In this document: one piece after another, positions 8,153 through 53,232 of the stretch
How positions within the stretch are numbered: position 1 is the first letter of the stretch
Layout: each line of letters opens with the position of its first letter
Source: Thermodesulfobacteriota bacterium
Lineage (GTDB): Bacteria > Desulfobacterota_D > UBA1144 > Nemesobacterales > Mycalebacteriaceae
Assembly (NCBI GenBank): GCA_965205855.1
Contig: OZ242184.1
Span: 886,570 to 950,569, forward strand
Direction: 5' to 3'
DNA length: 64,000 bases
The notes under the pieces: generated by a model
What the model was told of the DNA's origin: nothing
Seen by the model: only the letters and a program-made list of their open reading frames with translations
Database searches by the model: none
Program-made: the position numbers and the translations under genes

Positions 8153-9037
8153 ATGACCCCGATACTCAAATTGAAAACTACGAAAAAATCCGCCGATATA
8201 TGGATAAAACTTGAGAATATAAGCAACTCGGGAAGCTCCAAGGAAAGAATCTGCTCCGCGATAATTTCTGATGCGGAAAACAGAGGGAAACTCCATCCCG
8301 GCAAAACAACCGTGGTTGAGGCGACAAGCGGCAACACGGGCATCGCGCTCTCGCTTGTGTGCGTCGAAAAAGGATACCGCACGACTCTTTTCATGCCCGA
8401 AAACACCGCCGCCGAAAAAAAATCCCTTGCCAGGCTGTTCGGCGCGGAAATTGTTGAAACCCCCTCGGATGAGTCCTTGCGGGGGGCGATAAGAAGAGCC
8501 GGAAAGTTTGCCGCTGAAATGCCGGATGAGCGTTTCTTTGCCAATCAGTTCTCAAACCCGTTGAACCCCGCAACGCACAGGACACAAACCGCGCGTGAAA
8601 TAATCGCTCAGGCAAAACAAAAGGACACCGGTGCAATAGACGCTTTTATAATGGGGGTCGGCACCGGCGGAACAATTACGGGCGTGGGGCTTGAGATTAA
8701 AAATGTATTCCCGAACGCCGAAGTCGTCGCCGTTGAGCCTGAATCTTCGGCGGTTCTCTCCGGCGGAAAGCCCGGGAAACACTCAATTTCTGGCATAGGA
8801 ACGGGTTTTATTCCGGATATTCTGGACACCGGAGCATATAACCGGGTGGTTACCGTAACGGATGGTGAAGCATTGAAGGGAGTCTCCGAACTTGCCCTTA
8901 ACAACGGGATCTTCGCGGGAATTTCATCCGGCGCGAACTATGTCGCCGCATTGAAAATGGCGGAAGAACTGGGTCCGGAAAAACAGGTTTTCACCATCGC
9001 GTGCGATTCGGGAAACCGTTATATTTCAATGAAATAA
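8153..9037 (+). CDS. cysK: cysteine synthase (O-acetylserine sulfhydrylase, PLP-dependent)
   Basis: 294 aa. SGSSKERI PLP-lysine context, TSGNTGIAL, GVGTGGTITG. CysK versus CysM cannot be distinguished by eye. Confidence 0.85.
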   Translation: MTPILKLKTTKKSADIWIKLENISNSGSSKERICSAIISDAENRGKLHPGKTTVVEATSGNTGIALSLVCVEKGYRTTLFMPENTAAEKKSLARLFGAEIVETPSDESLRGAIRRAGKFAAEMPDERFFANQFSNPLNPATHRTQTAREIIAQAKQKDTGAIDAFIMGVGTGGTITGVGLEIKNVFPNAEVVAVEPESSAVLSGGKPGKHSISGIGTGFIPDILDTGAYNRVVTVTDGEALKGVSELALNNGIFAGISSGANYVAALKMAEELGPEKQVFTIACDSGNRYISMK

Positions 9038-9100
9038 AACACGTCCCCACCATAAAGGTTGAAACACATTGTCGCGTATGATATTTTCACAAAATACCCA

Positions 9101-11047
9101 ATGAAAAGTAGCATATTCAAGAATATATTCATCTGGTTGCTGATTTTTGTCGGTCTCGTAGCGTTCTATCAGTTCAGGGGAATGCCGCAAGACAAGCCGC
9201 TGGAAATATCCTACAGCGATTTTCTCGCCCATGTTGAAAACGGGAAAATCAGCAGTGTGGAAATAACCCTTGAAGATAGCTTAATTCAGGGCTCATTTAC
9301 AAAAGGATTTATCCCGCTGCAAGAGGCATTGCCTGAAAACGCCGCGTCTGTACAAGGCGCTGAAGCGAACAAAACCGACCGGTCTGTTACTTTCAAAACA
9401 TTCGGTCCCGTGGAAGAGAACTACCTGCTTCAAACTCTCAGAGAAAACGGAGTAAAGTTCAGTTACGCGAAAAATTCGGGTAGAAGCTTCGGGCAGATTT
9501 TAATAAGCTGGGGACCGTTTCTGCTCCTTATAATACTTATGGTTTTCTTTCTGCGCCAGATTCAGGCAGGCGGCTCAAAAGCGATGTCCTTCGGCAAGAA
9601 CAAGGCTAAAAAACTGGACACTGAAAACAACAAAATAACATTTGACGATGTGGCGGGAATCGAAGAAGCAAAAGAGGAAGTCGGAGAGATAGTAGACTTT
9701 CTGCAAAACCCGGCAAGGTTCACTTCAATAGGAGGCAAAATTCCGAAAGGGGTGTTGCTTGTTGGGCCCCCCGGAACGGGAAAAACCCTTCTCGCCCGCG
9801 CGATTGCGGGAGAAGCCAACGTTCCATTTTTTCTGATAAGCGGAAGTGATTTTGTTGAAATGTTTGTTGGCGTCGGCGCTTCAAGGGTCAGAGACCTTTT
9901 CGCTCAGGCGAAAAAGAGTGCTCCATGCATAATATTTGTGGATGAACTTGACGCGGTCGGCAGGCACAGAGGAGCTGGTCTTGGAGGAGGCCATGATGAA
10001 AGGGAGCAAACCCTCAACCAGCTTCTTGTGGAAATGGACGGCTTTGAAAACAACAGGGGAACAATAGTTATGGCGGCAACAAACCGTCCCGATGTTCTTG
10101 ACCCTGCGCTTCTGCGTCCGGGGAGGTTTGATAGACAGATAGTTGTTTCCAGACCCGACTTCAAAGGACGCAAAGCCATACTTCAGGTTCACTCAAGAAA
10201 AACCCCTCTGCAAACAAATGTGGACCTTGAGGTAATAGCACTGTCAACTCCGGGGTTTTCCGGCGCGGATCTTGAAAACCTTGTGAATGAGTCGGTTCTT
10301 CACGCTGCGCGCAATGGAAACAAGATGGTCTCAATGGAAGACTTTGAATACGCCAAGGACAAAATAATGATGGGTTCGGAAAGAAAAAGTCTTGTCATAA
10401 ATGAGAAAGAGCGGAATATCACTGCTTACCACGAAGCCGGACACGCCGTGGTCGCAAAACTCACTCCGGGCGCGGACCCAGTGCACAAGGTAACAATTAT
10501 TCCGCGTGGAATGGCTCTCGGCCTCACGCAGCAGATACCCAAAGAAGACACATACACACAGTCGCGCTCTTATCTGAACACTTTGATAATGGTGCTGCTC
10601 GGCGGGCGCGCAGCGGAAGAAATCATCTTCGGAGAACGCACAAGCGGAGCCGGAAACGATTTGAAAAGAGTTACCGAAATAGCCAGAAAGATGGTCTGCG
10701 AGTGGGGAATGAGCGAAAAAATAGGCCCCATATCACTCGCGAAAACCGAAGAGCAAGTTTTCCTCGGAAAAGAGTTTGCGAAAGCATTCGACCACAGTCA
10801 GCGGACCGCCGAAAAAATAGACATGGAAATCAAAGCGATTGTGGAAATGAACTATGGGAAAAGCAAAAGGGTTTTGAACAACAACATAGAACTGCTCAAA
10901 TCGGTTGCCAAGAGGCTTTTAAAAAAAGAAAGCATCACCGGCAGGGAAATAGACGAAATAATGGAAGCCTCAAACCTTTTCGTCAAACATTTTAAAGACA
11001 GAAAATCCTCAGAAATGGAATCGGGGCCGCAACAAGCCCGCGCATGA
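9101..11047 (+). CDS. ftsH: ATP-dependent zinc metalloprotease FtsH
   Basis: Two N-terminal TM segments, AAA+ motifs [11 protein letters not shown] and IIFVDELDA, zinc site HEAGHAV. The ATG at 9101 (MKSSIF...) is preferred over the TTG at 9059. Confidence 0.95.
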
Positions 11048-11937
11048 TAAAACACATGATATCAACAGTCCGGAACATCAAACCGACGCCTGCCGTTTTA
11101 AAAACAAAGAGCGGGGATATTCCAATGTCCAAACCCCTTGTGATGGGAGTGCTGAATCTGACCCCCGATTCTTTTTACGCGGAAAGCAGATGCGCATCCG
11201 TTGACGAATCGCTTTTCAGAGTTGAAAACATGCTTGATGAGGGAGCGGACATTGTGGATATGGGAGCCGAATCCACACGCCCCGGTTCAATTCCCGTTTC
11301 CGAGAAAGAGGAAACCAAACGGCTGATACCGGTTCTTGAACAGTGCGTGAAAAAATTCGGAGATTCAATTTTTTCCGTGGATACAACCAAAGCCGCCGTC
11401 GCACAGCGCGCTCTTGAAAGCGGCGCTTCAATAATAAATGACATAAGCGGTCTTGCGTTTGAGCCTTCCATAGCAAAATGCGTAGCAGAGGCGGACGCAG
11501 CCATTGTTGTTTCCCACACACCTGAACGCCCGGGCAAAATGCAGTCCCGAACGGACTACACTTGCGTCGTACGCGATGTCATAAAATCCCTGAAACAATC
11601 CGTCGAAAAAGCCGTCAATGCCGGAGTGCGGATTGAGTCCATTGTGATTGACCCGGGAATAGGCTTCGGGAAAACGCAAAATCAGAACCTTGAAATACTC
11701 AACAGACTTGATGAATTCTTTGAAATTGGCCGCCCCGTCCTCGTCGGGACATCCCGCAAGTCTTTTATAGGCGGAGTTCTCGGAGGACTTCCGGCTGAGG
11801 AAAGGATTGAAGGAACCGCCGCGACCGTGACGGTAGCGGTGACGAAAGGCGCTCAAATAGTGCGCGTTCATGACGTAAAAGAAATGGCGCGCGTGGCTAC
11901 AATGTCATACGCGATAAAAAGCGGGATGGCGGCATGA
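11044..11937 (+). CDS. folP: dihydropteroate synthase
   Basis: 297 aa. MGVLNLTPDSF, DIGAESTRPG, NDISG and IDPGIGFGK motifs of the pterin-binding family. Confidence 0.9.
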   Translation: MIKHMISTVRNIKPTPAVLKTKSGDIPMSKPLVMGVLNLTPDSFYAESRCASVDESLFRVENMLDEGADIVDMGAESTRPGSIPVSEKEETKRLIPVLEQCVKKFGDSIFSVDTTKAAVAQRALESGASIINDISGLAFEPSIAKCVAEADAAIVVSHTPERPGKMQSRTDYTCVVRDVIKSLKQSVEKAVNAGVRIESIVIDPGIGFGKTQNQNLEILNRLDEFFEIGRPVLVGTSRKSFIGGVLGGLPAEERIEGTAATVTVAVTKGAQIVRVHDVKEMARVATMSYAIKSGMAA

Positions 11938-12752
11938 GTCAAATTATCGAAATTCTATCGCTGAGTTTTCTCGCCGGCTTTAACATAAAAGATGCCATAG
12001 ACTTGCTGCTAGTTACGGTGATTCTCTACAAACTGATATCACTGCTTGAAGGCAAGCGCGCGATACAGATGATAGTCGGACTGTGTTTGATCTTCGTTCT
12101 CTATCTGGTGTCCGGCGAACTCGGTATGTTCACAATAAACTGGATTTTGAGGGAGTTTCTGAGTGCCATAATAATAATAATCGTGGTGTTGTTCCAAAAT
12201 GACATAAGAAAGGCTTTGTCGAGCATCGGAGGTAGCTCACCGCTGCGGAAATTTCTCAAGAAGTCCGATTATAACGAAAAAACGGTTGATGAGATAGTCA
12301 AGGCGGCAAACTATCTGGCAAACAACAAAATAGGAGCCATTATCGCGATTGAAAGAACAAACAGTCTTATGGATTACTCGGAAGGAGGAATAGAAGTCAA
12401 CACATCGGTTTCATCCGAAATTCTGATAAGCATATTCAATCCGGATTCTCCTCTTCACGACGGCGGTGTACTTATTCAAGAAAACAAAATCACTTCGGCA
12501 GGCTGCTTCTTCCCCATAGACACAAATCCGGACATCCCCAATCACCTTGGAACCCGTCACCGCGCCGCTTTCGGCCTGTCCAATGAGACGGACGCAGTCG
12601 TTGTTGTTATTTCGGAAGAAAGAGGGGAAATCTCCGTAATGATTCAAGACAAGAGAAGATTCAGAATAGATGTAACCGCCTTGAGAAGCACCCTCAATTT
12701 GTTGCTTCAATTAAACTCGGAAAGCACGGGGGCAAAGGAAAGCAAACCATGA
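11934..12752 (+). CDS. cdaA: diadenylate cyclase CdaA (DisA_N/DAC domain, membrane-anchored)
   Basis: Three N-terminal TM helices followed by a DAC domain with GAIIAIER, LHDGGV and GTRHRAA motifs. Confidence 0.9.
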   Translation: MSQIIEILSLSFLAGFNIKDAIDLLLVTVILYKLISLLEGKRAIQMIVGLCLIFVLYLVSGELGMFTINWILREFLSAIIIIIVVLFQNDIRKALSSIGGSSPLRKFLKKSDYNEKTVDEIVKAANYLANNKIGAIIAIERTNSLMDYSEGGIEVNTSVSSEILISIFNPDSPLHDGGVLIQENKITSAGCFFPIDTNPDIPNHLGTRHRAAFGLSNETDAVVVVISEERGEISVMIQDKRRFRIDVTALRSTLNLLLQLNSESTGAKESKP

Positions 12753-36503: not shown

Positions 36504-36545
36504 ATAACAAAGAGCGCTTCTTTACAAAGAAGCGCTCTTTGTTAT
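36504..36545. promoter_or_regulatory. 42-bp near-perfect palindrome in the divergent HDAC/rpmE2 intergenic region
   Basis: ATAACAAAGAGCGCTTCTTT-AC-AAAGAAGCGCTCTTTGTTAT. The two 20-nt arms are exact reverse complements. The sequence is certain. The function (operator or 5'-UTR hairpin) is unknown. Confidence 0.4.
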
Positions 36546-42788: not shown

Positions 42789-43547
42789 TCAATTATGCCA
42801 CAAAAAGGGATGGAGTGTCAAACTATACGGCGACCGCCTGATAGTCGGGGAGTTCACCCATTGTTTTCCCTCAAGAGCGCGTCCCGTCTTCTTTTTGTTC
42901 ACACCGCCCCATTGTTTGAAGAAAAACGGAACCCCGCTTTCAACGCAGTTGTCCCTGATTTCCGTAACCCATTCCTCTTTCATCGGTCTTGCGCCGGGGC
43001 CGGACTCTCCACCGACAATGACCCAGTCTATGCCTGACAAATTGAGGTTTGGAAACGGGGCAAGCAACGGTTCAAGAGAAAGAAACTTCACGCAAGCATC
43101 GGTCTGTTTTAAAACTTCTGTACGGGAAAGATATTTCTCGGACTCTACGCTTGTTCCCATCCAGATGTTGGAAGTCCAGTGCAGGTGTTTGTTCGCCTTC
43201 ACAACCCTTTCCGGTCTTTTTGTGAGAACCTGAAAAGTGTGTTGAGATGCTTCGTTCATAACTTCAAAAACGGACATAATGAATTTTGCGGGAACATCCT
43301 TGTGGAACAAATCGCTCATTGAATTGACAAAAACTATTTTCGGTTTTTTCCATTTAAGCGGGTCTTTCAAAGTGTGTTCATGAGTGGTGAGTTTGAAACC
43401 GTTTCTGTATTTCTCCATCCCTTGAGCGTGAAGCCGCTTTGCCATCCGCTCGGCGTAGCAGTATTTGCAACCGTGGCTGATTTTTGAACAACCGGTAATG
43501 GGGTTCCATGTTGTGTGAGTCCATCCTATTTTGGAGGGTTGGGTCAT
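42789..43547 (-). CDS. DUF5131 / phage Gp37-Gp68 family protein (Cys-cluster, radical-SAM-like)
   Basis: 252 aa. N-terminal [27 protein letters not shown] signature as I recall for Pfam PF07505. Its start overlaps the res stop (TAATG). Confidence 0.75.
42792..42821 (-). promoter_or_regulatory. candidate rplU-rpmA promoter embedded in the last codons of the upstream DUF5131 gene
   Basis: On the minus strand, TTGACA-18 nt-CATAAT. The -10 hexamer spans the final His-Asn codons (CAT AAT), directly before the TGA stop of the DUF5131 ORF. A GGAG Shine-Dalgarno and the rplU ATG follow within about 30 nt. Confidence 0.45.
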
Positions 43548-46090
43548 TACTGTTTGTTGATAACACCGTTTATATCGTCCCGCCAGCTGTCTTCAAACAT
43601 CATCCTGAAAGTAGCGGGCGTCTTATTGATGGCCATTTCGCCTCTGTCAAGGGCGATCCTGTATGTTTTTTCAAGCGTGTCGAGCAATTTTTTCTTGTAA
43701 CTCGTATCTTCGCTGCCTTTCAGGTGGATGCCCTTTGTTTCCAGAATTAGCAGTTTTCCGTTATCTTTTCGGCAGGCCACAAAATCGGGATACACGCGCT
43801 GGCGTCGCCAGCCTTGCAGATAGTACGCTTGTCTTGCAGCTATTCTGTGCCACCAGTAGATGGCGTTGCTCTTATCCAGATAAAGCGCAAAATCCCGCTC
43901 CAGACCGTTAAAACTACTTTCATAAACAGGTTCAAAAAGGTTTTGCTGTATAGGTCTGCCATGTTCGCTCTGTAATGATCTTTCTTGACTGGAAACAAAA
44001 ACCTCGAACGACTTGCTCAATTCGTAGTCCAGTCGCTGGTCGGTCTCAAGGTGAAACCGAATCACATTCCGCCCAACCTTTTCCCGAAACACCGCTTCGG
44101 CCTCGTCGTCTATGGCCTTGTTCACGCGGCGGCTCAATTCTTCGGAAAGGTAAATTCGGTTATTCAACAATTTGCTTTCATCGTGTTTCCTGTTTTTATG
44201 TGTTTGAATAAACCCCTCCGCCATGCGCGCCGCCTGCCACGGATTGGGCACCTTGTCCACAAGCCGCCGAACAAAATAATCCACGCTCAGCCGCTTTTCG
44301 CTGTCAGGGATTTGTTCCGAAGCCTTAACCTGCCCTTGAATGTCCACCGTGGTTTTGATCTCCTGAGTGATGTCTCTATCATCCAGATTCACCGCTGCGC
44401 CCGCGTCAATGGTGTCCCAATCAATCGCGCTTAATATATCGCGGTCGTAATCAATGGGGCGCCAGGTGCGCCCCGCTTTGTGTAACACCTGCGGGAGAAA
44501 AATTTTCAATGGCCGGTATTTACCACGACGTTTGACGGTGGTCGGTTTCGGTGCATCGCCCTCGCCATGCCCGTGAACAAAATCGCCAAGCCCGGTCAGC
44601 CCTTCATTCTCCAGGCCGGCCTTCACGCCTTTGATCGCCTTGCCTACGACCTGATTATAGCAATAGATATAACACTGGTTCAGCGCATCGCCTTGTGCGA
44701 TTCTGCGTGCATGGGGTTGCCGCATCACCCGACCGACCATTTGCGTGATGGCGGTGGTTGCGGTGGTGTTATCCAGCAAGGCAAGCAGATATGCAAACGA
44801 GCAATCCCAGCCTTCTTTCAGCGCGTCTTTGGTGATAATCCAGCGCACCTCGCTTGTCTCGCTCAACAAATCCTCACCCGCAAGTTCCTTGCGTTCCGAT
44901 GATTGAATCCTGATGTGATTCTCCGGCACAGCAAGATTTTGTATCAGGTATTCGCGCGCATCCTCCGAATGAATTTTTCCTTGCCCTCTTTGTTTTGCGC
45001 CCGTTCTTTCCACCCTGACCAAAGCGATGGGTCGGATATGGCGGTTTTCCTGTTCCTGTAATTTTTGCGCCGCACTTTCAAGCTCATCCAGTTTTTCCTG
45101 TGTTTTGGCAAGCGTGTGTTCCCAGTCGGAATTGCTGAAACTGTGAATCTCTATCGGCAGTTTGATCATCTCCTCGTCCTGGAGGTCGCGGCCCGATGTG
45201 TTGACCAGGATATTGCTGATGCCGATTTTCGGCGTGGCGGACAGTTCAAGCACAAAACGGGGGTTGAGCCGGTTGACGGATTTGACAAACTCCTGGTTGT
45301 TTTGATTATTCGGTCCATATGCTTTATGCGCTTCGTCCAAAATCACCGTGGGACGAATCAGTTTCAGCACATTGATCAGGCTTTGCTTAACCCAGTCGCC
45401 GGGTGCATTTTTCTCCAGGTCGGGATGGTGTTCCGAAAGCGTTGCATTGGCCGCCGCGTCATCCTGCTCGGGAAAAAACGACATATACCCGCTGCTGTCG
45501 CGGAATATTTTGAGAAACTCCCTGTTCTTTTGCCGGTTGGCGGAGGGTAGCATCAGCAGCATAATGCAAAGATAGTTTTCGGTATCCTGTCGGGTAAAGC
45601 GGTCGGTTTTTTGCAACAATTTGACCCTGCCGCCAGACATATGTTCGAGCATCTGCCGGTAGGTATGTTCGCGGGTGTGGAACGCCTGGCGGGTCTGCTC
45701 GTAGATCGCCCGGGTCGGCACAATCCACAACACAAAGCCGGTATCCCGCTTGATCCGCTCAAGCGTGGCCACGCCCAACAGCGTCTTGCCGCCGCCGGTC
45801 GGCACCTTCAGGCAAACATGCGGGATGGGTTCGCCGGATGCCGCAGTGCGGGAAATGTAGCCGGGAACTGCCATGTCACCGTCTTGGGAAATGCCGGGGA
45901 GGATATTTTGATCTTTCAGCGCCTTCCAAGCTAAGAGGGGATAGTTTTGCAGTTCTTCAGGAATATCAATCCCCGACTCTTCAAGAGCTTTGCCCGCCTT
46001 TTCACTAGTCAGCCGCGCTTCCTTGAGCGCGTCCAGCCAGCGGTCTAACTGTTCAAGAGCTTGTTGCTGATAGTTTTTCAGGGAGAGCAT
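43547..46090 (-). CDS. res: Type III restriction enzyme Res subunit (SF2 helicase plus C-terminal nuclease)
   Basis: Helicase motif I VPTGGGKT, motif [10 protein letters not shown], motif [12 protein letters not shown], and a C-terminal PD-ExK-like YPDF...LILETKG. The ATG at 46090 ([13 protein letters not shown]) is preferred because the tracked start at 46225 overlaps orf185. Confidence 0.85.
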
Positions 46091-46091
46091 A

Positions 46092-46649
46092 TCACGGATT
46101 TTTTGAGTCAGTACTGTCTGAATTATTTGGCAAATTGATGATTTCAACAGGCACATTCCTTTTACCAACTGCAAGACCGACAGCGTAGTTACGGATAATA
46201 GTTTGATCCATTTCCATATCCGCATAGCCTTGTGGATAGTACGAACCCCTTAGAATTTCCATCTGTTCTACCTTAAAATCTAGCACCTTGGCCATTGAGC
46301 TAAGCATCTCCGTGAGCAATTCCATTTGCTCCTTGCCGAGTCGTTCATAGTGCGAACGAGAATCATTTTCTTCGTTAGGCCTCTTAGCATGCGTTTCACC
46401 ATAATGCTTGCGGAGTGCTGCCCATTTTTCTATAACTTCTTTATGCTTAACAAATTCTATCTCAACCAGATTAATGGCTCCGACATAATCAGGTGATAAA
46501 CGCGCATTTCGTGTACGCATTAACGTCTTGAATATATCCATTTTTCGCGCCTTTTGTTCGCGCCATCTGTCAAGAAGACCGTTAACCCAGACAGCTGCGC
46601 AAGGACCGATTAAGATGGCTGCAATGGTGATGATAGAATATGAATTCAT
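46092..46649 (-). CDS. hypothetical membrane-anchored protein (185 aa) between mod and res
   Basis: N-terminal TM helix SIITIAAILIGPCAAVWV, then a charged helical region. Visibly AT-richer than the flanking mod and res sequence. Start lies 2 nt after the mod stop, and its stop lies 1 nt before the res ATG. Confidence 0.6.
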   Translation of the reverse strand: MNSYSIITIAAILIGPCAAVWVNGLLDRWREQKARKMDIFKTLMRTRNARLSPDYVGAINLVEIEFVKHKEVIEKWAALRKHYGETHAKRPNEENDSRSHYERLGKEQMELLTEMLSSMAKVLDFKVEQMEILRGSYYPQGYADMEMDQTIIRNYAVGLAVGKRNVPVEIINLPNNSDSTDSKNP

Positions 46650-46651
46650 GT

Positions 46652-48115
46652 TTATCTTATACCCTCATATGGTAATTGGGCAAAAGTTATCCCCATCTCG
46701 GTTAATGCTTTTTGTCCCATGAATTTGTGAGTGGCGAACACCACCGCGGTTTTCTTTTTTGCCTTGGCCTGTTTGGCGATGCGTTCGGCGCGGGTGCTGT
46801 TCAAAGCGGAATCCGCACTGCGCAGAAAATCAAGGTTCGGCTCGTAGATCAGGTAAAACATTTTGTCACCTGCTTCATAAAATAAACCGTCTTTGCCACG
46901 CCTTGTTTTCGGGTTGAGTTTATGCGGCGATTGTCCGCTTGCGGTATAGATCAGATGGCGGGCAAAGGTTTCATAGCCCGGCAGGTTCCTGCCGGTGAGC
47001 ATTTTTTCAATGCTGATTTCATCGCCCAGTGTGCAATAGGCAAAACTGCCGCCCAGTCCGTTTTTTAGGTTCTCATCCTTTGCTTTTGGTATGCCCTTTA
47101 TCACACGGCGAACGCGCTCGGCGGTGATTTTGTCGGCGTAGTCTTCGCATTCCACCAAGATAAATTTGCGGTTGCCGCCGTCTTCCTTGTTCAGCGCAAG
47201 CACGGCGTGGGCAGTGGTGCCGGAACCGGCGAAGGAGTCGAGGATAATGGCGTTTTTTGTCGTTGCCAGTTGTAAAATCTTTTTCACAAGGGAAATTGGT
47301 TTGGGGTTTTGGAACTGATTAGAACCAAACACCGTCCTCAACTCGATTGTGCCGTTGGTTGTTGTACCTACATCATCCCACCAAGTGCTAGGCGTTAACC
47401 CCCTTCGGCGTGCCTCTGACAAAAAACGTTTGCGCTGAGGTCTGGAACTATTTCTCTTTCCGAATACGATTCTATTGTCTGCAAGAAGCTCCTCAAATTT
47501 GTTCAAATCGTTTTTCCAGCAATTACCTTCAGTGGGGTAAAATATTTCTTTTGTTTTAGGGTTTCTTATCGGATACATCTGATTAGGTCGAACCCCACCA
47601 GCCTCAAATGGATCCGCCTTCCATGGGCCTCTCGGATCATTATCAGGATTTTTGAATCCTTCTAAAATGGCAGGAAGTTTGAAATCTTTTCTAATGGTTT
47701 TTAATACATTCAGTTGTTTAGCATAAGCTATATTATGAGTGTGTGATATTGATACTAATGCAGGATTTGTAATTGATTTTGTGCTATGCCACACAAAATC
47801 TGCAACAAAATTCTCCTCCCCAAAAATCTCATCCATGACCATCCGCAGGCGGTGCTGTTCATTGTCGTCGATGGAAATAAAAATTACGCCATCTTCGGCC
47901 AGCAATTCTCTTAACAACTGCAATCTTGGCCACATCATGCACAGCCATTTGTCGTGCCGCTCCAGGTCTTCGCCATCCACCGGACTTTTGCCTTTCAGCC
48001 ACGCCTTCATCATCGGGCTGTTGACATTGTCGTTATAGACCCATTTCTCATTGCCGGTGTTGTAGGGCGGGTCGATGTAAATGCAGTTGACGCGGCTGGC
48101 ATAGCGCGGCAGCAA
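46652..48115 (-). CDS. mod: Type III-like DNA methyltransferase Mod (beta-class N6/N4), main frame downstream of a frameshift
   Basis: Motif IV IDPPYNTG precedes motif I DSFAGSGTT. The frame stays open upstream of the tracked TTG start up to the stop at 48203..48205 (..SFSEKWGGNPSLDDNLIIHGDNLHALKA). The N-terminal 37 codons lie in another frame (next feature). Confidence 0.85.
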   Translation of the reverse strand: MLPRYASRVNCIYIDPPYNTGNEKWVYNDNVNSPMMKAWLKGKSPVDGEDLERHDKWLCMMWPRLQLLRELLAEDGVIFISIDDNEQHRLRMVMDEIFGEENFVADFVWHSTKSITNPALVSISHTHNIAYAKQLNVLKTIRKDFKLPAILEGFKNPDNDPRGPWKADPFEAGGVRPNQMYPIRNPKTKEIFYPTEGNCWKNDLNKFEELLADNRIVFGKRNSSRPQRKRFLSEARRRGLTPSTWWDDVGTTTNGTIELRTVFGSNQFQNPKPISLVKKILQLATTKNAIILDSFAGSGTTAHAVLALNKEDGGNRKFILVECEDYADKITAERVRRVIKGIPKAKDENLKNGLGGSFAYCTLGDEISIEKMLTGRNLPGYETFARHLIYTASGQSPHKLNPKTRRGKDGLFYEAGDKMFYLIYEPNLDFLRSADSALNSTRAERIAKQAKAKKKTAVVFATHKFMGQKALTEMGITFAQLPYEGIR

Positions 48116-48150
48116 CGCCTTGAGCGCGTGCAGATTGTCGCCGTGGATAA

Positions 48151-48291
48151 TCAGATTGTCATCAAGGGAAGGGTTACCCCCCCATTTTTCGCTGAAAGAG
48201 ATTTTTTAGTGTCTATCTCAAGTGTCCTGGACGGAACAGTCAGGTGGTGCGCATAAATGAGTTGCTTCCCTTTGAAATCAATTGTCGGCAT
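48151..48291 (-). pseudogene. mod: 5' segment of mod in a different frame, separated from the main frame at a G7 tract
   Basis: The ATG at 48291 opens MPTIDFKGKQLIYAHHLTVPSRTLEIDTKKSLSAKN followed by the G7 run (plus-strand C7 at 48177..48183). As written, the frame ends at the TGA at 48151. One extra G joins it to the Mod main frame. Confidence 0.7.
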
Positions 48292-48448
48292 TGAAAACCC
48301 CGTAAATCAGTTTGATATTGGCTTTGAAGATACCCGATTTACTCCCCCAACCTAAACCCCTCAACCTCCCGATGCACCGCCCCTTCCCGTCTCAATTCAC
48401 TCTCCATCAAACAAACTCTTTCAGAAGCAAAACCAAGTTCAAACTGCG
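48285..48448 (-). repeat. direct repeat copy A: thpR(ligT) 3'-end fragment, downstream spacer and first 7 nt of mod
   Basis: Identical base-for-base, by manual alignment, to 51106..51269. Its inner end is truncated by the IS1380-family remnant. Confidence 0.9.
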
Positions 48449-48768
48449 CCCGCGGTGACATGGAGAACCGGATCAAGGATCAGCAGTTGGATTTGTTTGC
48501 GGATCGCACCTCTTGTCACCGCTGGTGGCCCAACCAGTGCCGGCAGTTGCTGTCAGGGTTGGCTTACACGTTGATTGAGGGATTGCGGCGCCTTGCACTA
48601 CAGGGCACCGAACTGGCCAAAGCCAGTCCTCACAGGATCAGGCTGACACTGCTTAAAATCGGTGCCGTGATCATCCGCAACACGCGCCGCATCCGCCTAC
48701 TGATGAGCAGTGCTTATCCCCATCAGGCGTTGTTCCGCACGGCAGCCTATCGGCTCAACTCCCCATAA
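48449..48768 (+). mobile_element. IS1380-family transposase C-terminal remnant (pseudogene)
   Basis: Encodes only ..ARGDMENRIKDQQLDLFADRTSCHRWWPNQCRQLLSGLAYTL..., which resembles the conserved C-terminal block of IS1380 DDE transposases. About 340 N-terminal residues are absent. Confidence 0.65.
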
Positions 48769-48959
48769 ACCCAACCCAGTGCTGCCCCGGCATGTTGATA
48801 AACAATGGGGGTAGGGGGAGTTGCGCCCGAAATCTGTGAACAACGAAAGAATTGATCAAAGAACAGGCAACTGCATCATATGATGCATCGACAGGGATGG
48901 CGCTACCGAAAAATCGACCACCACCGCTTCACTCATGAAATATCCGGGATAGTCTCGCT

Positions 48960-50099
48960 TTATTTTCGGATGAGAAACAGAAATTCTTTATTCGGATCGC
49001 TGGATTCCCGCAACCACTCATTTGTCCATTTCATGGCGGCCATCACATTTTTTTTATACTCAATTTTTGCGCTATCCACAATTTCTCCGTTACGCGTTAT
49101 CACCTCGTTTAATTCCTCCGCGGTTGCTCGTCCACCGGAACTGTAAGAGAGCAAGATCCATCGGCAAGGAGTTTCCTTCAGCAAACGCTCTATGGCTTCC
49201 ACCACAACCAATCGTCCTGATTTGCTTCTACGAAATTCCTCGAACACTGAAGTCGCCACTTTATCGGATGTGTCTTTTCTGCGGAGGGACTTGCCAAATA
49301 GCACGGGATGATCATTTTTACATATGGTCGTCCACAAATGATAATATGAAGCGTACCGAACCCTTGAAGGTGGCATTTTTTCATTGTTTGACCCATACGG
49401 AGGATCAAAATAAGCAAGATCGGCGTCCGCTTCGGGAAGTACCTTAAAAACATCACCACACAGCACCGTGTTTTCGATTTCATTTTTCCACAACCGTGGC
49501 ACTTTCAATTGTAAATTTTTGAATGAACGCGGCGACCAATCTTTTAAATAAGAAACAAAATGACCAAGAGTACTGTCTATCTCATTCAACCCTAAAATCA
49601 GGCTTGTCAATGCCACACTTTTGGAAACGTCATCCAGCATCAAGGCATCGATCTCTCTCCTGATTGCATCAAGTTTTCTTGTATTTTTTTTCTGCCAAGG
49701 CTTTTTGGTTCCATCCTTCTGAATAGCATTATGGCAAGTTCCAGAGCGAACATCACCACCGTAATTCTCAGTAAACCATCCGTCTTCCGGAGGAAGCGAA
49801 TTTAAATGATCAATAAGAGGTTGGTATATTTTCGGGTTTTTTAAGTTTTTCAAATAGCACGTGGCAAAAATTCTTGACCATTCGGAAATATCATTTGATA
49901 CCACGCGATATCCTGCTTGTGCAAAAGATTGACTTACTCTGGTGGAGCCTGAAAAACCGTCAAAAATGCTTTTTGCTCCGGTCTGTTTTGACAGATTAAA
50001 AATATGTGGAAGCAGTTTCAGTTTTGAGCCTGCGTAATTGATGCCTTCGGTTTTTGGAACATCAATCCAATCACGAAAAATTTGAACTTGCCCTTGCAT
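48960..50099 (-). CDS. adenine-specific DNA methyltransferase, alpha-class (Dam / D12-like)
   Basis: 379 aa. NYAGSKLKLL, motif I FDGFSGS, motif IV FDPPYG, and a C-terminus ending in EFLFLIRK typical of D12-class enzymes. Confidence 0.8.
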   Translation of the reverse strand: MQGQVQIFRDWIDVPKTEGINYAGSKLKLLPHIFNLSKQTGAKSIFDGFSGSTRVSQSFAQAGYRVVSNDISEWSRIFATCYLKNLKNPKIYQPLIDHLNSLPPEDGWFTENYGGDVRSGTCHNAIQKDGTKKPWQKKNTRKLDAIRREIDALMLDDVSKSVALTSLILGLNEIDSTLGHFVSYLKDWSPRSFKNLQLKVPRLWKNEIENTVLCGDVFKVLPEADADLAYFDPPYGSNNEKMPPSRVRYASYYHLWTTICKNDHPVLFGKSLRRKDTSDKVATSVFEEFRRSKSGRLVVVEAIERLLKETPCRWILLSYSSGGRATAEELNEVITRNGEIVDSAKIEYKKNVMAAMKWTNEWLRESSDPNKEFLFLIRK

Positions 50100-50776
50100 T
50101 ATGTAACTTTAAAGCGGGAAGCCTGCTTGAGTCTAACAATATCATCTTTCACTTTTGCAAGAGCCTCATTCTGGCCGAAATCAGAAGAAACAAGCGCGTG
50201 AGAAAATAGTTGGACCAAGATAGGATTGTGAGAATAATCAACCCATCCATTGGTTATGCTATCAAAATAGTTTAAACCACTTTTTGTATGAGTCCAAAGC
50301 CCTCGCTGGAGGGCATTGGCGGTTGCGCTTCCATAACGCACCTCGCAAATATAAGAATCGCTTGCATCGTAGAAACGATATACTGGGTGCTTTCTACCTT
50401 TCTTTTTTGTTTCTTTTACTATTTTCACCGTTTCAGTTTCAGCGCGGTGGTAATCGAAGACAAGAATATTACACTGTCGATTTTTTTCGTCATAAATTAA
50501 TGGCAAAACATTTACATTGTAAAAATCCGAGAAAGCGGGGTCGGCAAGCACTCGTTGTACATTTTTCTTGCCCACTATTTCATCCCCCTCTTGTGCCAAT
50601 CTCGGAAACATTTTGAAATTCTTGTCGGTTGAAAGTTGAAGGGGACCATCACCATACGCTTTGATGCTAACAGGAAATTCAGCTTCGGTTACTTCATTTA
50701 TTATTTTGATGTCTTCTTCCCGAGATTTGGCTCTGTATAAATCTTTGCCAACATGGATCGAGCGAAAATCATACAT
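50099..50776 (-). CDS. hypothetical protein, candidate Type II restriction endonuclease partner of the Dam-like methylase
   Basis: 225 aa. Its stop overlaps the methylase start. Possible PD-ExK-like element (FYDASDSYICEVRYG). No family recognised. Confidence 0.4.
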   Translation of the reverse strand: MYDFRSIHVGKDLYRAKSREEDIKIINEVTEAEFPVSIKAYGDGPLQLSTDKNFKMFPRLAQEGDEIVGKKNVQRVLADPAFSDFYNVNVLPLIYDEKNRQCNILVFDYHRAETETVKIVKETKKKGRKHPVYRFYDASDSYICEVRYGSATANALQRGLWTHTKSGLNYFDSITNGWVDYSHNPILVQLFSHALVSSDFGQNEALAKVKDDIVRLKQASRFKVT

Positions 50777-50777
50777 A

Positions 50778-50987
50778 CTACTGGTTGATAAATTCGGCTA
50801 TGGCGATTTCTGCCAAATCTCCATGTGTTTTATTTCCAATGAGGCGCATGGTGAAAATGTTGCTCAATGTCAAGATTATTAAATCCGGGCGTTTACTCGC
50901 AAGAAGCTTCAATCTCGAGATGAAATCTTTATATGGATCATTTTTCATGTTTTTCGTTTGATGCCTCTGTTTTGGTATTTTTATCAA
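50778..50987 (-). CDS. hypothetical 69-aa ORF, separate small gene or detached N-terminal part of the 225-aa ORF
   Basis: It ends at a TAG one nt before the ATG of the next ORF (CAG TAG T ATG). It is in a different frame from that ORF. Confidence 0.3.
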   Translation of the reverse strand: MIKIPKQRHQTKNMKNDPYKDFISRLKLLASKRPDLIILTLSNIFTMRLIGNKTHGDLAEIAIAEFINQ

Positions 50988-51105
50988 CCTTCATTTTTCA
51001 GATCGTCGCATGAGCTTGGGTTGAGATGATTCGGTAGCGTCATCGAGAATTCATGTGTATCAATTGCTGTTCAAGTTTAACCCGTTTTGCCTGTAAATCA
51101 CCCAA

Positions 51106-51335
51106 TCGGCATTGAAAACCCCGTAAATCAGTTTGATATTGGCTTTGAAGATACCCGATTTACTCCCCCAACCTAAACCCCTCAACCTCCCGATGCACCG
51201 CCCCTTCCCGTCTCAATTCACTCTCCATCAAACAAACTCTTTCAGAAGCAAAACCAAGTTCAAACTGCGGCAATTCGGGTAGCTTCATCCTTTTTTTTAT
51301 CCACCCTATCGTAACGTGCGACATAAAATCCCGTT
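51106..51335 (-). repeat. direct repeat copy B: longer thpR(ligT) 3'-end fragment, spacer and first 7 nt of mod (ATGCCGA)
   Basis: 51106..51269 is identical to copy A. 51129..51335 aligns without gaps to the intact thpR 3' end (52052..52258) with about 18 mismatches by manual count. It keeps an open frame (..SHVTIGWIKKRMKLPELPQFELGFASERVCLMESELRREGAVHREVEGFRLGE*). Confidence 0.85.
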
Positions 51336-51461
51336 ATTGTAGGCTGCTGTTATGTGTAACGGAGTTTCATATGAAAATTCTCTGCTATGAGCAATTGTGG
51401 TCACTGGGATTCTCACAATTGCTGGTTGTGCGAGCCAGCCAGATTTGACAATGACTCAGTA

Positions 51462-51872
51462 TTAGTGCTCGCCCTCTTGATTAATTTGTTTCCACAAACT
51501 GCCGATAGCAAGTAGTGCTGGAATAATAAGTAGCACCACTACAATTGGCACACTTGATTTAATTACCTCTACATTTAATGCATATACGGTAATAACATCG
51601 GATATGTCCGTCAATAATCTGACAATTAATATCGCTAAAAGTGCTTTATGAGACTTAAGGAATAAAGCAACTATTATCCCTATAACTACCATTACATTTC
51701 TTGTAATGTAAAGTTGTGTAACATAATTCAATTCGGAAACCTCTGGTATGAAACCACTTGGGTTCATGGCCGTACCAGCTGAGAAGAAAAGCACTAAAGA
51801 TATTTGTATTAGAACAATGACCCATACCCAAATAGGTAAGAATCCATTGGTTTGACCATTTTTGTAATTCAT
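51462..51872 (-). CDS. hypothetical four-TM membrane protein (136 aa), AT-rich cargo
   Basis: Four hydrophobic helices. Markedly AT-rich by eye. Lies between repeat copy B and the IS1595 remnant. Confidence 0.5.
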   Translation of the reverse strand: MNYKNGQTNGFLPIWVWVIVLIQISLVLFFSAGTAMNPSGFIPEVSELNYVTQLYITRNVMVVIGIIVALFLKSHKALLAILIVRLLTDISDVITVYALNVEVIKSSVPIVVVLLIIPALLAIGSLWKQINQEGEH

Positions 51873-51905
51873 ATTTGCAACCTCTTATTTTTACCTAATT
51901 ATCAC

Positions 51906-52052
51906 TTAAACTAAGCAGAGTTTCAAGATATTTTCCGGCATCGGCGGCGTTTTGAGCGCTGCATAAGCAAGTCTCGGTATTAACTCGCACAAATCAAAGC
52001 GACGATTGAAACGATACTGAAATTCTGACAAATAACGCTGTGCGTATTTTTC
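51906..52052 (-). mobile_element. IS1595-family transposase C-terminal remnant (pseudogene)
   Basis: The minus strand encodes EKYAQRYLSEFQYRFNRRFDLCELIPRLAYAALKTPPMPENILKLCLV*. The YL.EF.YRFNRR block is the conserved C-terminal signature of ISXO2-like/IS1595 transposases. It abuts repeat copy C directly. Confidence 0.65.
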
Positions 52053-52258
52053 AGTTTGATATTGGCTTTGAAAATACCCGATTTACTCCCCCAACCTAAA
52101 ACCCTCAACCTCCCGATGCACCGCCCCTTCTCGTCTCAATTCACTCTCCATCAAACAAACCCTGTCAGAAACAAACTCAAGTTTAAACTGCGGCAATTCG
52201 GGCAGTTTTATCCTTTTTCTTATCCGCCCTATCGTAATGTGTGGTATAAAATCCCGTT
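52052..52258 (-). repeat. direct repeat copy C: 3' end of the intact thpR gene plus 31 nt downstream
   Basis: Homologous to copy B over 207 nt (about 91% identity by manual count) and to copy A over its shorter extent. Confidence 0.85.
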
Positions 52259-52664
52259 TCTCCGGCTCAAAACCGATTGTCTCAAGTTTTGAGTCAATCT
52301 CGTCCTTGAGACTGAAAAACGCGTCCCCGGATTCCGCAATCACCGCAAGCGTCTGCGTATAACGGCGGAGTATAAGCGCCTCAACCCCGTCCGTTGTGAT
52401 GTCGAGCGGCACAAACCGCTTGCAACAACTTTCAATAACCCCGCACAGTTCGGGAATCAATTCGCGGCGCGTCTCTCCGAGAAACCTTAAAGTAATATGG
52501 AATTTTTCAGACAGCTCCCAACGCACATGGCGGAGCGAGCGTATTGCGGCGGAACGGGATTTTATCACCCTTTTTGCTTTTTCGGGAACTTCAAGAGAAA
52601 TAAAAAGCCGGACGGTAGCGCTGTCAACTCTCAAGCTCAACATTCCAGTATGAGGCATCAACAA
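52083..52664 (-). CDS. thpR: RNA 2',3'-cyclic phosphodiesterase ThpR (LigT, 2H phosphoesterase)
   Basis: Two H-x-T-x motifs (HITLRFLG and HITIGR). The true start may be the ATG at 52643, which overlaps the HNH gene stop by 20 nt. Confidence 0.8.
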   Translation of the reverse strand: MLMPHTGMLSLRVDSATVRLFISLEVPEKAKRVIKSRSAAIRSLRHVRWELSEKFHITLRFLGETRRELIPELCGVIESCCKRFVPLDITTDGVEALILRRYTQTLAVIAESGDAFFSLKDEIDSKLETIGFEPEKRDFIPHITIGRIRKRIKLPELPQFKLEFVSDRVCLMESELRREGAVHREVEGFRLGE

Positions 52665-53232
52665 AACTTACAAACGGCTCCCATTCTTTGTAGCGGATTG
52701 GGTGCGCGTAAATGTTTGCAAACGGTCCCCACTGCGGTTCGGAGGGAATTGTGAGCAATTTCATCCTTGCCTGTTCGGGAGTTCTACCGCCTTTTCTGCG
52801 GTTGCACGAGCCGCAGGAGCAGACAACATTGTCCCATCTGCTTTCTCCGCCGTGCGCGCGCGGAATAACATGGTCTATCGTAAGCTCGGTTTTGGAAAAA
52901 TGCTTTCCGCAGTATTGGCATTTACCGCTGTCTCTGCGGAATATGTTGAAGCGCGTAAATCTCGGACGCTTTCTGTGAAATCCGCTGTAACGGAGCAGGA
53001 TTATAACCCTCGGCGCTTTGATGATCCTTGTAACGGTTCTCACATAGTCGCCACGCCCTCCGGCGGCAGAGGCGGCGGAAACCTCCGCCCAACTCTCAAA
53101 ATCAAAAGTCTCGTAGGTTTTTGTTACGGCTTTCGCCTCGCCGCAATAGAGCATCACAAATGCCCGTCGCAAATTGGTAACGGAAACGGGCATATAGTTT
53201 TTGTTCAAAACCAGAACCGGCGAACTCAACAT
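52624..53232 (-). CDS. HNH endonuclease-domain protein
   Basis: 202 aa. CQYCG...DHVIPRAHGGESRWDNVVCSCGSCNRRKG is an HNH/zinc-finger core. Confidence 0.8.
   Translation of the reverse strand: MLSSPVLVLNKNYMPVSVTNLRRAFVMLYCGEAKAVTKTYETFDFESWAEVSAASAAGGRGDYVRTVTRIIKAPRVIILLRYSGFHRKRPRFTRFNIFRRDSGKCQYCGKHFSKTELTIDHVIPRAHGGESRWDNVVCSCGSCNRRKGGRTPEQARMKLLTIPSEPQWGPFANIYAHPIRYKEWEPFVSFVDASYWNVELES

Follow-up and report, generated by a model that had tools for sequence, protein, structure and literature searches.

Contig OZ242184.1 of a Thermodesulfobacteriota bacterium contains, within the 64,000-nt stretch analyzed here (called the window throughout; all coordinates are positions in it unless another sequence is named), a foreign insert that carries a Type II restriction-modification (R-M) gene pair and stands between two perfect 164-nt direct repeats at the start of a resident Type III methyltransferase gene, mod. 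Based on the repeats, the origin of the insert and the sequence at its two junctions, we propose that a linear foreign fragment was captured in a single illegitimate recombination event with a target duplication of 154-164 nt, a reading that we consider probable by a modest measure. The original prediction for this locus, an R-M unit inserted with a long duplication of its target, is thus partly supported and is the best available interpretation: the geometry, the foreign insert, the Type II pair and the lack of an integrase agree with it, and what has to be given up is the picture of a clean and isolated insert with a working R-M pair, for it brings a valS tail and a truncated insertion sequence along, the restriction gene is frameshifted and the locus is nested. 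A known phenomenon is seen here in a new and well-resolved case; the system is not of a new kind and is in that respect fairly ordinary.

The argument starts from the repeats and from thpR, the gene whose 3' end they contain:

48285-48448, minus strand: direct repeat copy A, identical to copy B at 164/164 positions
51106-51269, minus strand: direct repeat copy B, the same 164 nt as copy A, with ATGCCGA followed by a valS tail
51128-51335, minus strand: thpR fragment B, full extent against the intact gene (91.3% identical over 208 nt to 52051-52258)
52083-52664, minus strand: intact thpR, RNA 2',3'-cyclic phosphodiesterase (TIGR02258, E=2.7e-29; Pfam LigT_PEase)

A string comparison and a self-BLASTN of the whole 64-kb window agree that 48285-48448 and 51106-51269 are identical at 164/164 positions, with exactly the limits that had been predicted; the identity ends sharply, and self-BLASTN finds not one further matching base at either side. 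A perfect repeat of this length is not explicable by chance within 64 kb. Read on the minus strand, each copy consists of 107 nt of thpR-like coding sequence, its TAA stop codon (48339-48341 in copy A, 51160-51162 in copy B), a 47-nt spacer and ATGCCGA, which bears out the predicted anatomy of a thpR/ligT-like 3' end, a stop codon, a spacer of about 47 nt and the mod start. Past copy A the ATGCCGA frame runs on as the mod N-terminus (MPTIDFKG...), and past copy B it enters the foreign valS tail and stops as MPIG*; both continuations had been predicted and both are read in the sequence. Joining the two repeats into one would give back a continuous thpR fragment, spacer and mod.

A third, diverged copy (copy C, 52051-52258) comprises the last 176 nt of intact thpR and 32 nt downstream; the window holds three copies only, the third being the parent gene itself, and the repeat is not multi-copy within the window. 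Intact thpR is 93.7% identical to fragment A over 142 nt (48307-48448, BLASTN), and fragment B extends 66 nt deeper into thpR than fragment A. A recent event is a plausible reason for the identity of copies A and B; gene conversion could maintain it too. The 164-nt repeats should allow precise loss or amplification of the insert through homologous recombination.

Between the repeats lie 2,657 nt of foreign DNA (48449-51105) in two parts, a chromosomal fragment and a piece of an IS1380-family insertion sequence (IS). Its features, with R and M denoting the restriction endonuclease and methyltransferase genes, are as follows:

48950-51114, minus strand: imported chromosomal fragment with valS tail, R and M (98.7% identical over 2,165 nt to 8987-11150 of locus L005)
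51040-51114, minus strand: foreign valS tail, the last 25 codons including the stop (QCRLGDLQAKRVKLEQQLIHMNSR*), aligning with the valS C-termini of L005, L016 and L018
50099-50948, minus strand: Type II restriction endonuclease gene R, frameshifted (the intact 282-aa L005 version matches PADLOC REase_II PDLC03568, E=1.2e-129)
48960-50099, minus strand: intact gene M for a D12-class N6-adenine DNA methyltransferase of 379 aa (Pfam PF02086, E=1.6e-22; PADLOC MTase_II PDLC03342, E=6.9e-162)
48449-48951, plus strand: 5'-truncated IS1380-family (ISPa33-like) element, 3' quarter (Pfam DDE_Tnp_1_4, NF033539 and ISPa33 match)

The alignment of window 48950-51114 with L005 contains 27 mismatches and one gap (BLASTN), and M is 99% identical to a homolog (P0002) from an unrelated genome. 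The guanine-plus-cytosine (GC) content of the insert is 0.39-0.41 versus 0.50-0.57 in the host. The single alignment gap is an extra G at 50778, outside any homopolymer, which cuts the 282-aa R into open reading frames (ORFs) of 69 and 225 aa. Owing to this +1 frameshift R is predicted to be dead in the window, and the imported pair would amount here to a solitary methylase beside a dead nuclease, without a working R-M system. The insert had been described as a Type II-like R-M cassette with a Dam-like methylase, two uncharacterized ORFs, an IS1380 remnant and no integrase. The methylase, the IS and the absence of an integrase stand, and PADLOC identifies a genuine Type II pair; the two ORFs turn out to be one split R gene, and with its valS tail, its truncated IS and its frameshift the insert is not a clean R-M unit. 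No Pfam family exists for R, whose identity is settled by PADLOC; PDB sequence searches with R and M gave no match, and the 225-aa piece of R, when modeled with AlphaFold from a single sequence, yielded nothing informative (predicted local distance difference test score, pLDDT, 36).

The home of the pair can be located. In L005, L006 and L007 the methylase gene follows the 282-aa gene between valS and the UDP-glucose dehydrogenase gene (ugd), and in L005 M is followed by the 3' end of ugd, which lies on the opposite strand. The gene order pepA-holC-valS-R-M-ugd is kept throughout the donor clade (L005, L016, L017 and L018), within which nucleotide identity is 76-79% over the R-M pair and over its flanks alike. 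This uniformity indicates that the pair is resident in the donor clade and was imported here. Its GC content in the donor clade (0.41) is below that of the flanks (0.56-0.62). The arrangement pepA-holC-valS, which is that of E. coli, suggests a gammaproteobacterial donor, that is, a gammaproteobacterium-like chromosome unrelated to the host.

A third unrelated genome (L008) carries the same valS-R-M-ugd stretch at 9587-11492, 96-99.6% identical to L005, with most of R deleted and a 140-nt insertion in M. The ends of this stretch differ from those in the window (they correspond to L005 8948-11348), which argues that the unit travels as a chromosomal fragment with variable ends and not as a discrete element. 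It thus appears that the pair left its home chromosome at least two times, each time as an arbitrarily ended fragment, the L008 stretch representing an independent transfer. No direct or inverted repeats longer than 28 nt were found around the R-M pair in L005, L007 and L008. Two other views of the fragment were rejected. One saw in the 2,165-nt block a mobile cassette, discrete and fixed at its ends, given that its limits coincided in the window and L005; the other took the L005 flanks as a split valS gene, and translation of the valS C-termini of L005, L016 and L018 identified the first 75 nt of the block (51114-51040) as an ordinary valS end.

The second part of the insert shows what was attached to the pair before transfer. 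The IS remnant is 72.5% identical to ISPa33 at the nucleotide level from 48450 onward and comprises the last ~102 codons of the transposase (48460-48768; DDE_Tnp_1_4 positions 332-431 of 435) followed by ~180 nt of 3' sequence. It begins inside the transposase, at about residue 330, exactly at the repeat boundary, and ends in a genuine right inverted repeat, ...CTCATGAAATATCCGGG(ATA), at 48948-48951, in agreement with ISPa33 and two other relatives (TCATGAGAAATCCGGGCTA). Since this true right inverted repeat adjoins M, a complete IS had probably entered ~10 nt past the M stop codon before the transfer. The IS1380 remnant and a second, IS1595-family remnant nearby are both truncated and, to judge from their sequence, should be incapable of activity. 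The case of PaeR7I in E. coli offers a comparison: the R-M unit was reportedly linked to an IS after moving, and some products are reported to have arisen via 1-3 bp of identity. There, the IS was reportedly active and chromosomal and the vehicle was a plasmid, whereas the present IS appears to be a dead fragment inside imported DNA.

The two junctions of the insert, J1 on the side of copy B and J3 on the side of copy A, each show a short stretch common to host and incoming DNA:

51106-51114, no strand: J1 microhomology, TCGG exact and 8/9 nt (TCGGSATTG, plus strand) common to the host spacer/mod start and donor valS
48443-48448, no strand: J3 microhomology, ACTGCG present both in the thpR fragment and in the coding sequence of the IS1380 transposase

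At J1, the minus strand reads ...GGGGTTTTCAATGCCGAcaattg in host copy A, ...aaagaaCAATCCCGATTGGATG in donor L005 and ...GGGGTTTTCAATGCCGATTGGGTG in window copy B; the crossover falls in CCGA, within the 8/9 match. At 51110 copy B carries the host base, the G of CAATGCCGA, where donor valS has C, so that at least the ATG of the copy-B mod start derives from the target. At J3, the thpR fragment reads ...AAACTGCG followed by GCAA, IS1380 relatives read ...TA(C/T)TGCG followed by CCCG(C/T)GG, and the window reads ...AAACTGCG followed by CCCGCGG; the shared stretch is ACTGCG (~6 nt), or TGCG at minimum. Both J1 and J3 thus appear to be microhomology joints, and neither lies at an IS terminus. Because the terminal 4-9 nt on the mod side and ~6 nt on the IS side also occur in the incoming DNA, the unambiguous target duplication is ~154 nt once these microhomologies are subtracted from 164. 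In the closest mod allele (L021), homology to the window starts only 3 nt upstream of the ATG, which suggests that spacer and Type III unit had been brought together before the arrival of the fragment.

No integrase or recombinase gene and no tRNA gene was found in 43547-52083. Furthermore, the end points of the three thpR copies differ on both sides (52051/51128 vs 51106/48285; 51335/52258 vs 51269/48448), so that there is no common crossover core. Taken with the microhomology joints, these observations weigh against site-specific integration and also against joining by transposition. We favor illegitimate capture as the simplest reading. Linear foreign DNA of ~2.66 kb would have been captured at both ends by microhomology-mediated illegitimate recombination, between the thpR 3' fragment with its spacer and the start of the resident Type III mod. 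Its donor would have had the Type II R-M pair between valS and ugd and an IS1380-family element ~10 nt downstream of M, and the captured fragment begins 75 nt ahead of the stop codon of valS and ends within the transposase gene of the IS. If the two receiving chromosomal ends overlapped by ~154-164 nt, the overlap would, after repair, stand on both sides of the insert, and mod would retain its start codon and native upstream sequence. We infer that this was a single event and that the DNA entered as a naked or linear fragment; the overlapping ends may have come from over-extension of a broken end on the sister copy, from joining to two sister duplexes, or from template switching at a replication fork.

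Foreign single strands are known to integrate at microhomologies in double illegitimate recombination of the short-patch type (SPDIR; Harms et al. 2016 as described in bioRxiv 10.1101/2023.11.22.568220). The present locus resembles SPDIR, and double illegitimate recombination generally, in that heterologous DNA is joined at both ends through microhomology (4-9 nt here) with no element-encoded recombinase. It differs in scale and outcome: SPDIR patches measure 3 to ~100 bp (bioRxiv 10.1101/2023.11.22.568220) and the present insert 2.66 kb, and SPDIR yields microindels where this locus has a 164-nt duplication.

Insertion of R-M complexes with long target duplication was described by Nobusato et al. 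2000, whose work Furuta, Abe and Kobayashi 2010 cite and carry further (PMC2853133). The latter screened for R and M homologs in the insert, an insert below 20 kb and a direct repeat longer than 30 bp, and further for an empty-site genome, for the absence of linked mobile-element genes and for a repeat that is not multi-copy (PMC2853133). Here, R and M homologs are both in the insert (the R profile match is that of the intact L005 ortholog, the window R being frameshifted), the insert measures 2,657 nt, and the repeat measures 164 nt, or ~154 nt without the microhomologies. The locus shares with the published cases a foreign-composition R-M pair of less than 20 kb, the lack of an integrase and a repeat that overlaps the 3' end of a host gene (PMC2853133). 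Its repeat of 164 nt compares with 45 to ~420 nt in the published tables (PMC2853133), and, as in those cases, the repeats would permit loss or amplification. Unlike them, it also includes an IS1380 remnant and a valS tail, its R is frameshifted, no empty-site genome was found for it, and its target is a piece of a gene, itself displaced, within an array of three nested copies. Also unlike those cases generally, a donor locus and microhomology at both junctions are identifiable here. As to linked mobile-element genes, an IS1380 remnant lies inside the insert and an IS1595 remnant 0.8 kb away, and the screen of Furuta et al. would have excluded the present insert because of the IS.

These linked IS remnants are one of several limits on the reading as an R-M insertion with long target duplication. 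The duplication needs a less simple mechanism than plain two-ended illegitimate insertion, and the inserted DNA, a random piece of chromosome, brings a valS tail and a truncated IS along. Nor does the repeat record an isolated event; it is one level in a nest of three copies within a defense-island hotspot, and a complex history involving the third target copy, at 91-94% identity, could mimic a one-step duplication. The J3 microhomology is read from IS relatives that are only 70-72% identical, of which 1/3 reads ATTGCG. An empty site was sought with thpR in genome and metagenome contig collections, which returned matches of at most 64% amino acid identity, and the pre-insertion state is a reconstruction, not an observed sequence. 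Protein searches with M, Mod and thpR gave closest matches of 66% (thpR) and 83% (Mod) amino acid identity, none near enough for an empty site, and no donor allele came to light; the closest Mod relatives (P0122, P0128) lie in contexts without thpR, in unrelated surroundings. Finally, the window comes from a metagenome-type assembly.

The same final structure, with the same two microhomology junctions, could have been reached in two steps. The fragment would first have entered mod 7 nt from its start, disrupting the gene and duplicating nothing; afterward, sibling DNA that lacked the insert (thpR fragment, spacer and mod) would have recombined in through one homologous crossover in mod/res and one illegitimate crossover between the thpR fragment and the IS interior, as in homology-facilitated illegitimate recombination; mod would be restored and the second repeat copy made. 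Such a course would explain the truncation of the IS exactly at the repeat boundary and the native 5' region of mod, and the outer nested copy at 91% identity suggests past recombination with related DNA at the locus. It calls for two rare events where the favored reading has one, no intermediate is seen, and mod is out of frame at a G7 tract anyway, which weakens the argument from selection to restore it. We regard the two-step course as unlikely. The collapse of strain variants with and without the insert into one chained contig would be another origin of the duplication. In its appearance the window is like a contig assembled from a metagenome, long-read metagenome assemblies are the source of related records, and perfectly identical copies are expected from collapsed or chained haplotypes. 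J1 and J3 must nevertheless physically exist, and the 2.66 kb between them is much less than a long read covers; a repeat of 164 nt would not be long enough to mislead a long-read assembler, and the junction microhomologies are biologically coherent. An assembly artifact is accordingly very improbable.

Two further explanations would place a mobile-element enzyme at the joining step. ISEcp1, of the IS1380 family, moves neighboring chromosomal genes and leaves 5-bp flanking repeats (PMC9429958), and a similar unit could have begun at the left inverted repeat, taken in the IS, M, R and the valS tail, and stopped at a surrogate right end within valS, entering the spacer/mod start; a later rearrangement would have lost the 5' part of the IS and made the repeat. 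In favor of this scheme, the transposase reads toward a right inverted repeat that abuts M, with the cargo downstream, and the far boundary in the donor (AATCGGGATT) resembles the IS terminus (ATCCGGGATA). As in ISEcp1 units (PMC9429958), the right inverted repeat faces the cargo and the cargo comes from a foreign chromosome. Unlike those units (PMC9429958), the present IS is truncated in its transposase and has no left end, no 5-bp target duplication is seen, and the 164-nt repeat is not transpositional. With the left inverted repeat and three quarters of the transposase (~330 codons) absent, no target-site duplication is visible; the host base, not the donor G, stands inside the putative surrogate end, whose similarity is weak, and the 8/9 match to the mod start would be coincidence. 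J3 falls inside the transposase gene and not at an IS end, and, as transposition duplicates 4-5 bp and not 164 bp, an extra unexplained step would be needed. We consider mobilization of this kind improbable. Alternatively, the three thpR 3'-end copies might be attachment (att) sites left by tandem integrase-mediated accretion of islands into the thpR 3' end. Islands in gene 3' ends classically show an intact gene with displaced 3' fragments behind it, and there variable cargo likewise sits at a conserved hotspot, and the thpR-alaS interval does hold different defense islands in two related loci (L001, L015). The present locus differs from such islands in the absence of an integrase, recombinase or tRNA gene in 43547-52083 and of a common att core, the three copies ending differently on both sides, and its inserts, a piece of chromosome that includes a valS tail together with truncated pieces of IS, are not island-like. 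Island accretion is largely refuted, and we give it next to no credence.

Beyond copy B the locus repeats its own pattern:

51336-52050, minus strand: outer nested insert between copies C and B (IS1595-family transposase end and 136-aa membrane ORF)

This outer insert contains the C-terminus of a 5'-truncated IS1595-family transposase (51906-52050; tblastn identity 58-65%, from query residue 1) and a 136-aa membrane ORF (51462-51872) without a family match, has a GC content of 0.36-0.40, and stands between direct repeats of 208 nt whose identity is only 91%. Its 715 nt have no DNA match in plasmids. It is the same kind of object as the inner insert. The differences between intact thpR and fragment B cluster in the less conserved 5' part, the ratio of nonsynonymous to synonymous substitution rates (dN/dS) is ~0.42, and fragment B has outgroup residues where intact thpR departs from them; in this small sample, these features suggest two functional alleles, not decay in situ.

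Relatives in a Dadabacteria-like clade share the order hisD-hisC-lgt-HNH-thpR and then diverge in content. In L001 (7543-16185) thpR is followed by an alpha/beta-hydrolase gene and a Type III-like res/DUF1828/mod set, then DUF5131; in L015 (Candidatus Mycalebacterium sp.; 8384-11351) by Mrr and an AAA_15/AAA_21 ATPase, then rplU-rpmA-alaS; and in the window by the entire 43547-52083 island with its Type III and Type II genes. Given that each of the three related genomes has a different defense island, the interval downstream of thpR is a defense-island hotspot, which the locus marks, from thpR to alaS, in an uncultured lineage.

To our knowledge, 25 years of cataloguing long target duplications at R-M genes have yielded no mechanism for them. 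We suggest tentatively, and with more doubt than conviction, that this is the first such duplication to show its donor locus, the precise ends of the transferred fragment and the microhomology at both junctions, and that it arose when host repair of a break or fork captured naked foreign DNA between two overlapping chromosomal ends. If this is true, the duplication would be owed to host repair and not to the R-M genes or to mobile-element activity, and capture would have struck twice at one hotspot directly downstream of the conserved HNH-thpR pair; the site would be unusually break-prone, a trap for defense genes in the Dadabacteria-like lineage. The imported DNA is traceable to a valS-R-M-ugd neighborhood in another phylum, L008 has the fragment with other ends, and both joints of the insert lie on microhomology, which together argues that R-M genes can cross phyla as plain chromosomal fragments through host repair, without mobile-element machinery. 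The proposal gives a testable model of how the duplication formed and predicts that the insertion is reversible by loss or amplification through the 164-nt repeats; it does not overturn current views.

The resident system into whose first gene the fragment was joined occupies the remainder of the island:

46652-48291, minus strand: Type III mod (PADLOC MTase_III, E=9e-146; N-terminus of P0128)
43547-46649, minus strand: rest of the Type III operon, a DUF6680 gene (46092-46649; Pfam DUF6680, E=5.9e-47) and res (43547-46090; PADLOC REase_III, E=7e-213)

The mod gene is out of frame at its G7 tract (C7 on the plus strand, 48177-48183), where a G8 tract would let the ATGCCGA start lead to a full-length Mod; in L021, which has the closest allele, the same tract is G9. 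This variation in tract length between genomes could be phase variation or homopolymer sequencing error. A simple sigma-70 scan of the spacer found no minus-strand promoter. The DUF6680 gene stands between mod and res, a place occupied in the L021 operon (11630-12721) by a Lipase_3 gene; that operon is otherwise ~80-93% identical, and the target-recognition region of Mod differs too.

Several neighboring observations may be added. Directly after res, a DUF5131 gene (42789-43547) matches the PADLOC candidate defense families PDC-M41B and PDC-M30B (E ~1e-115) and is syntenic in L001 at 84% nucleotide identity. On the other side of the island, a 202-aa HNH protein gene (52624-53232) overlaps the thpR start, and the HNH-thpR pair is also present in L015; the HNH domain scores best against Cas9/IscB-type HNH models and is not part of the finding reported here. 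Elsewhere in the window, self-BLASTN revealed a 42-nt near-perfect palindrome at 36504-36545 that is 95% self-complementary.

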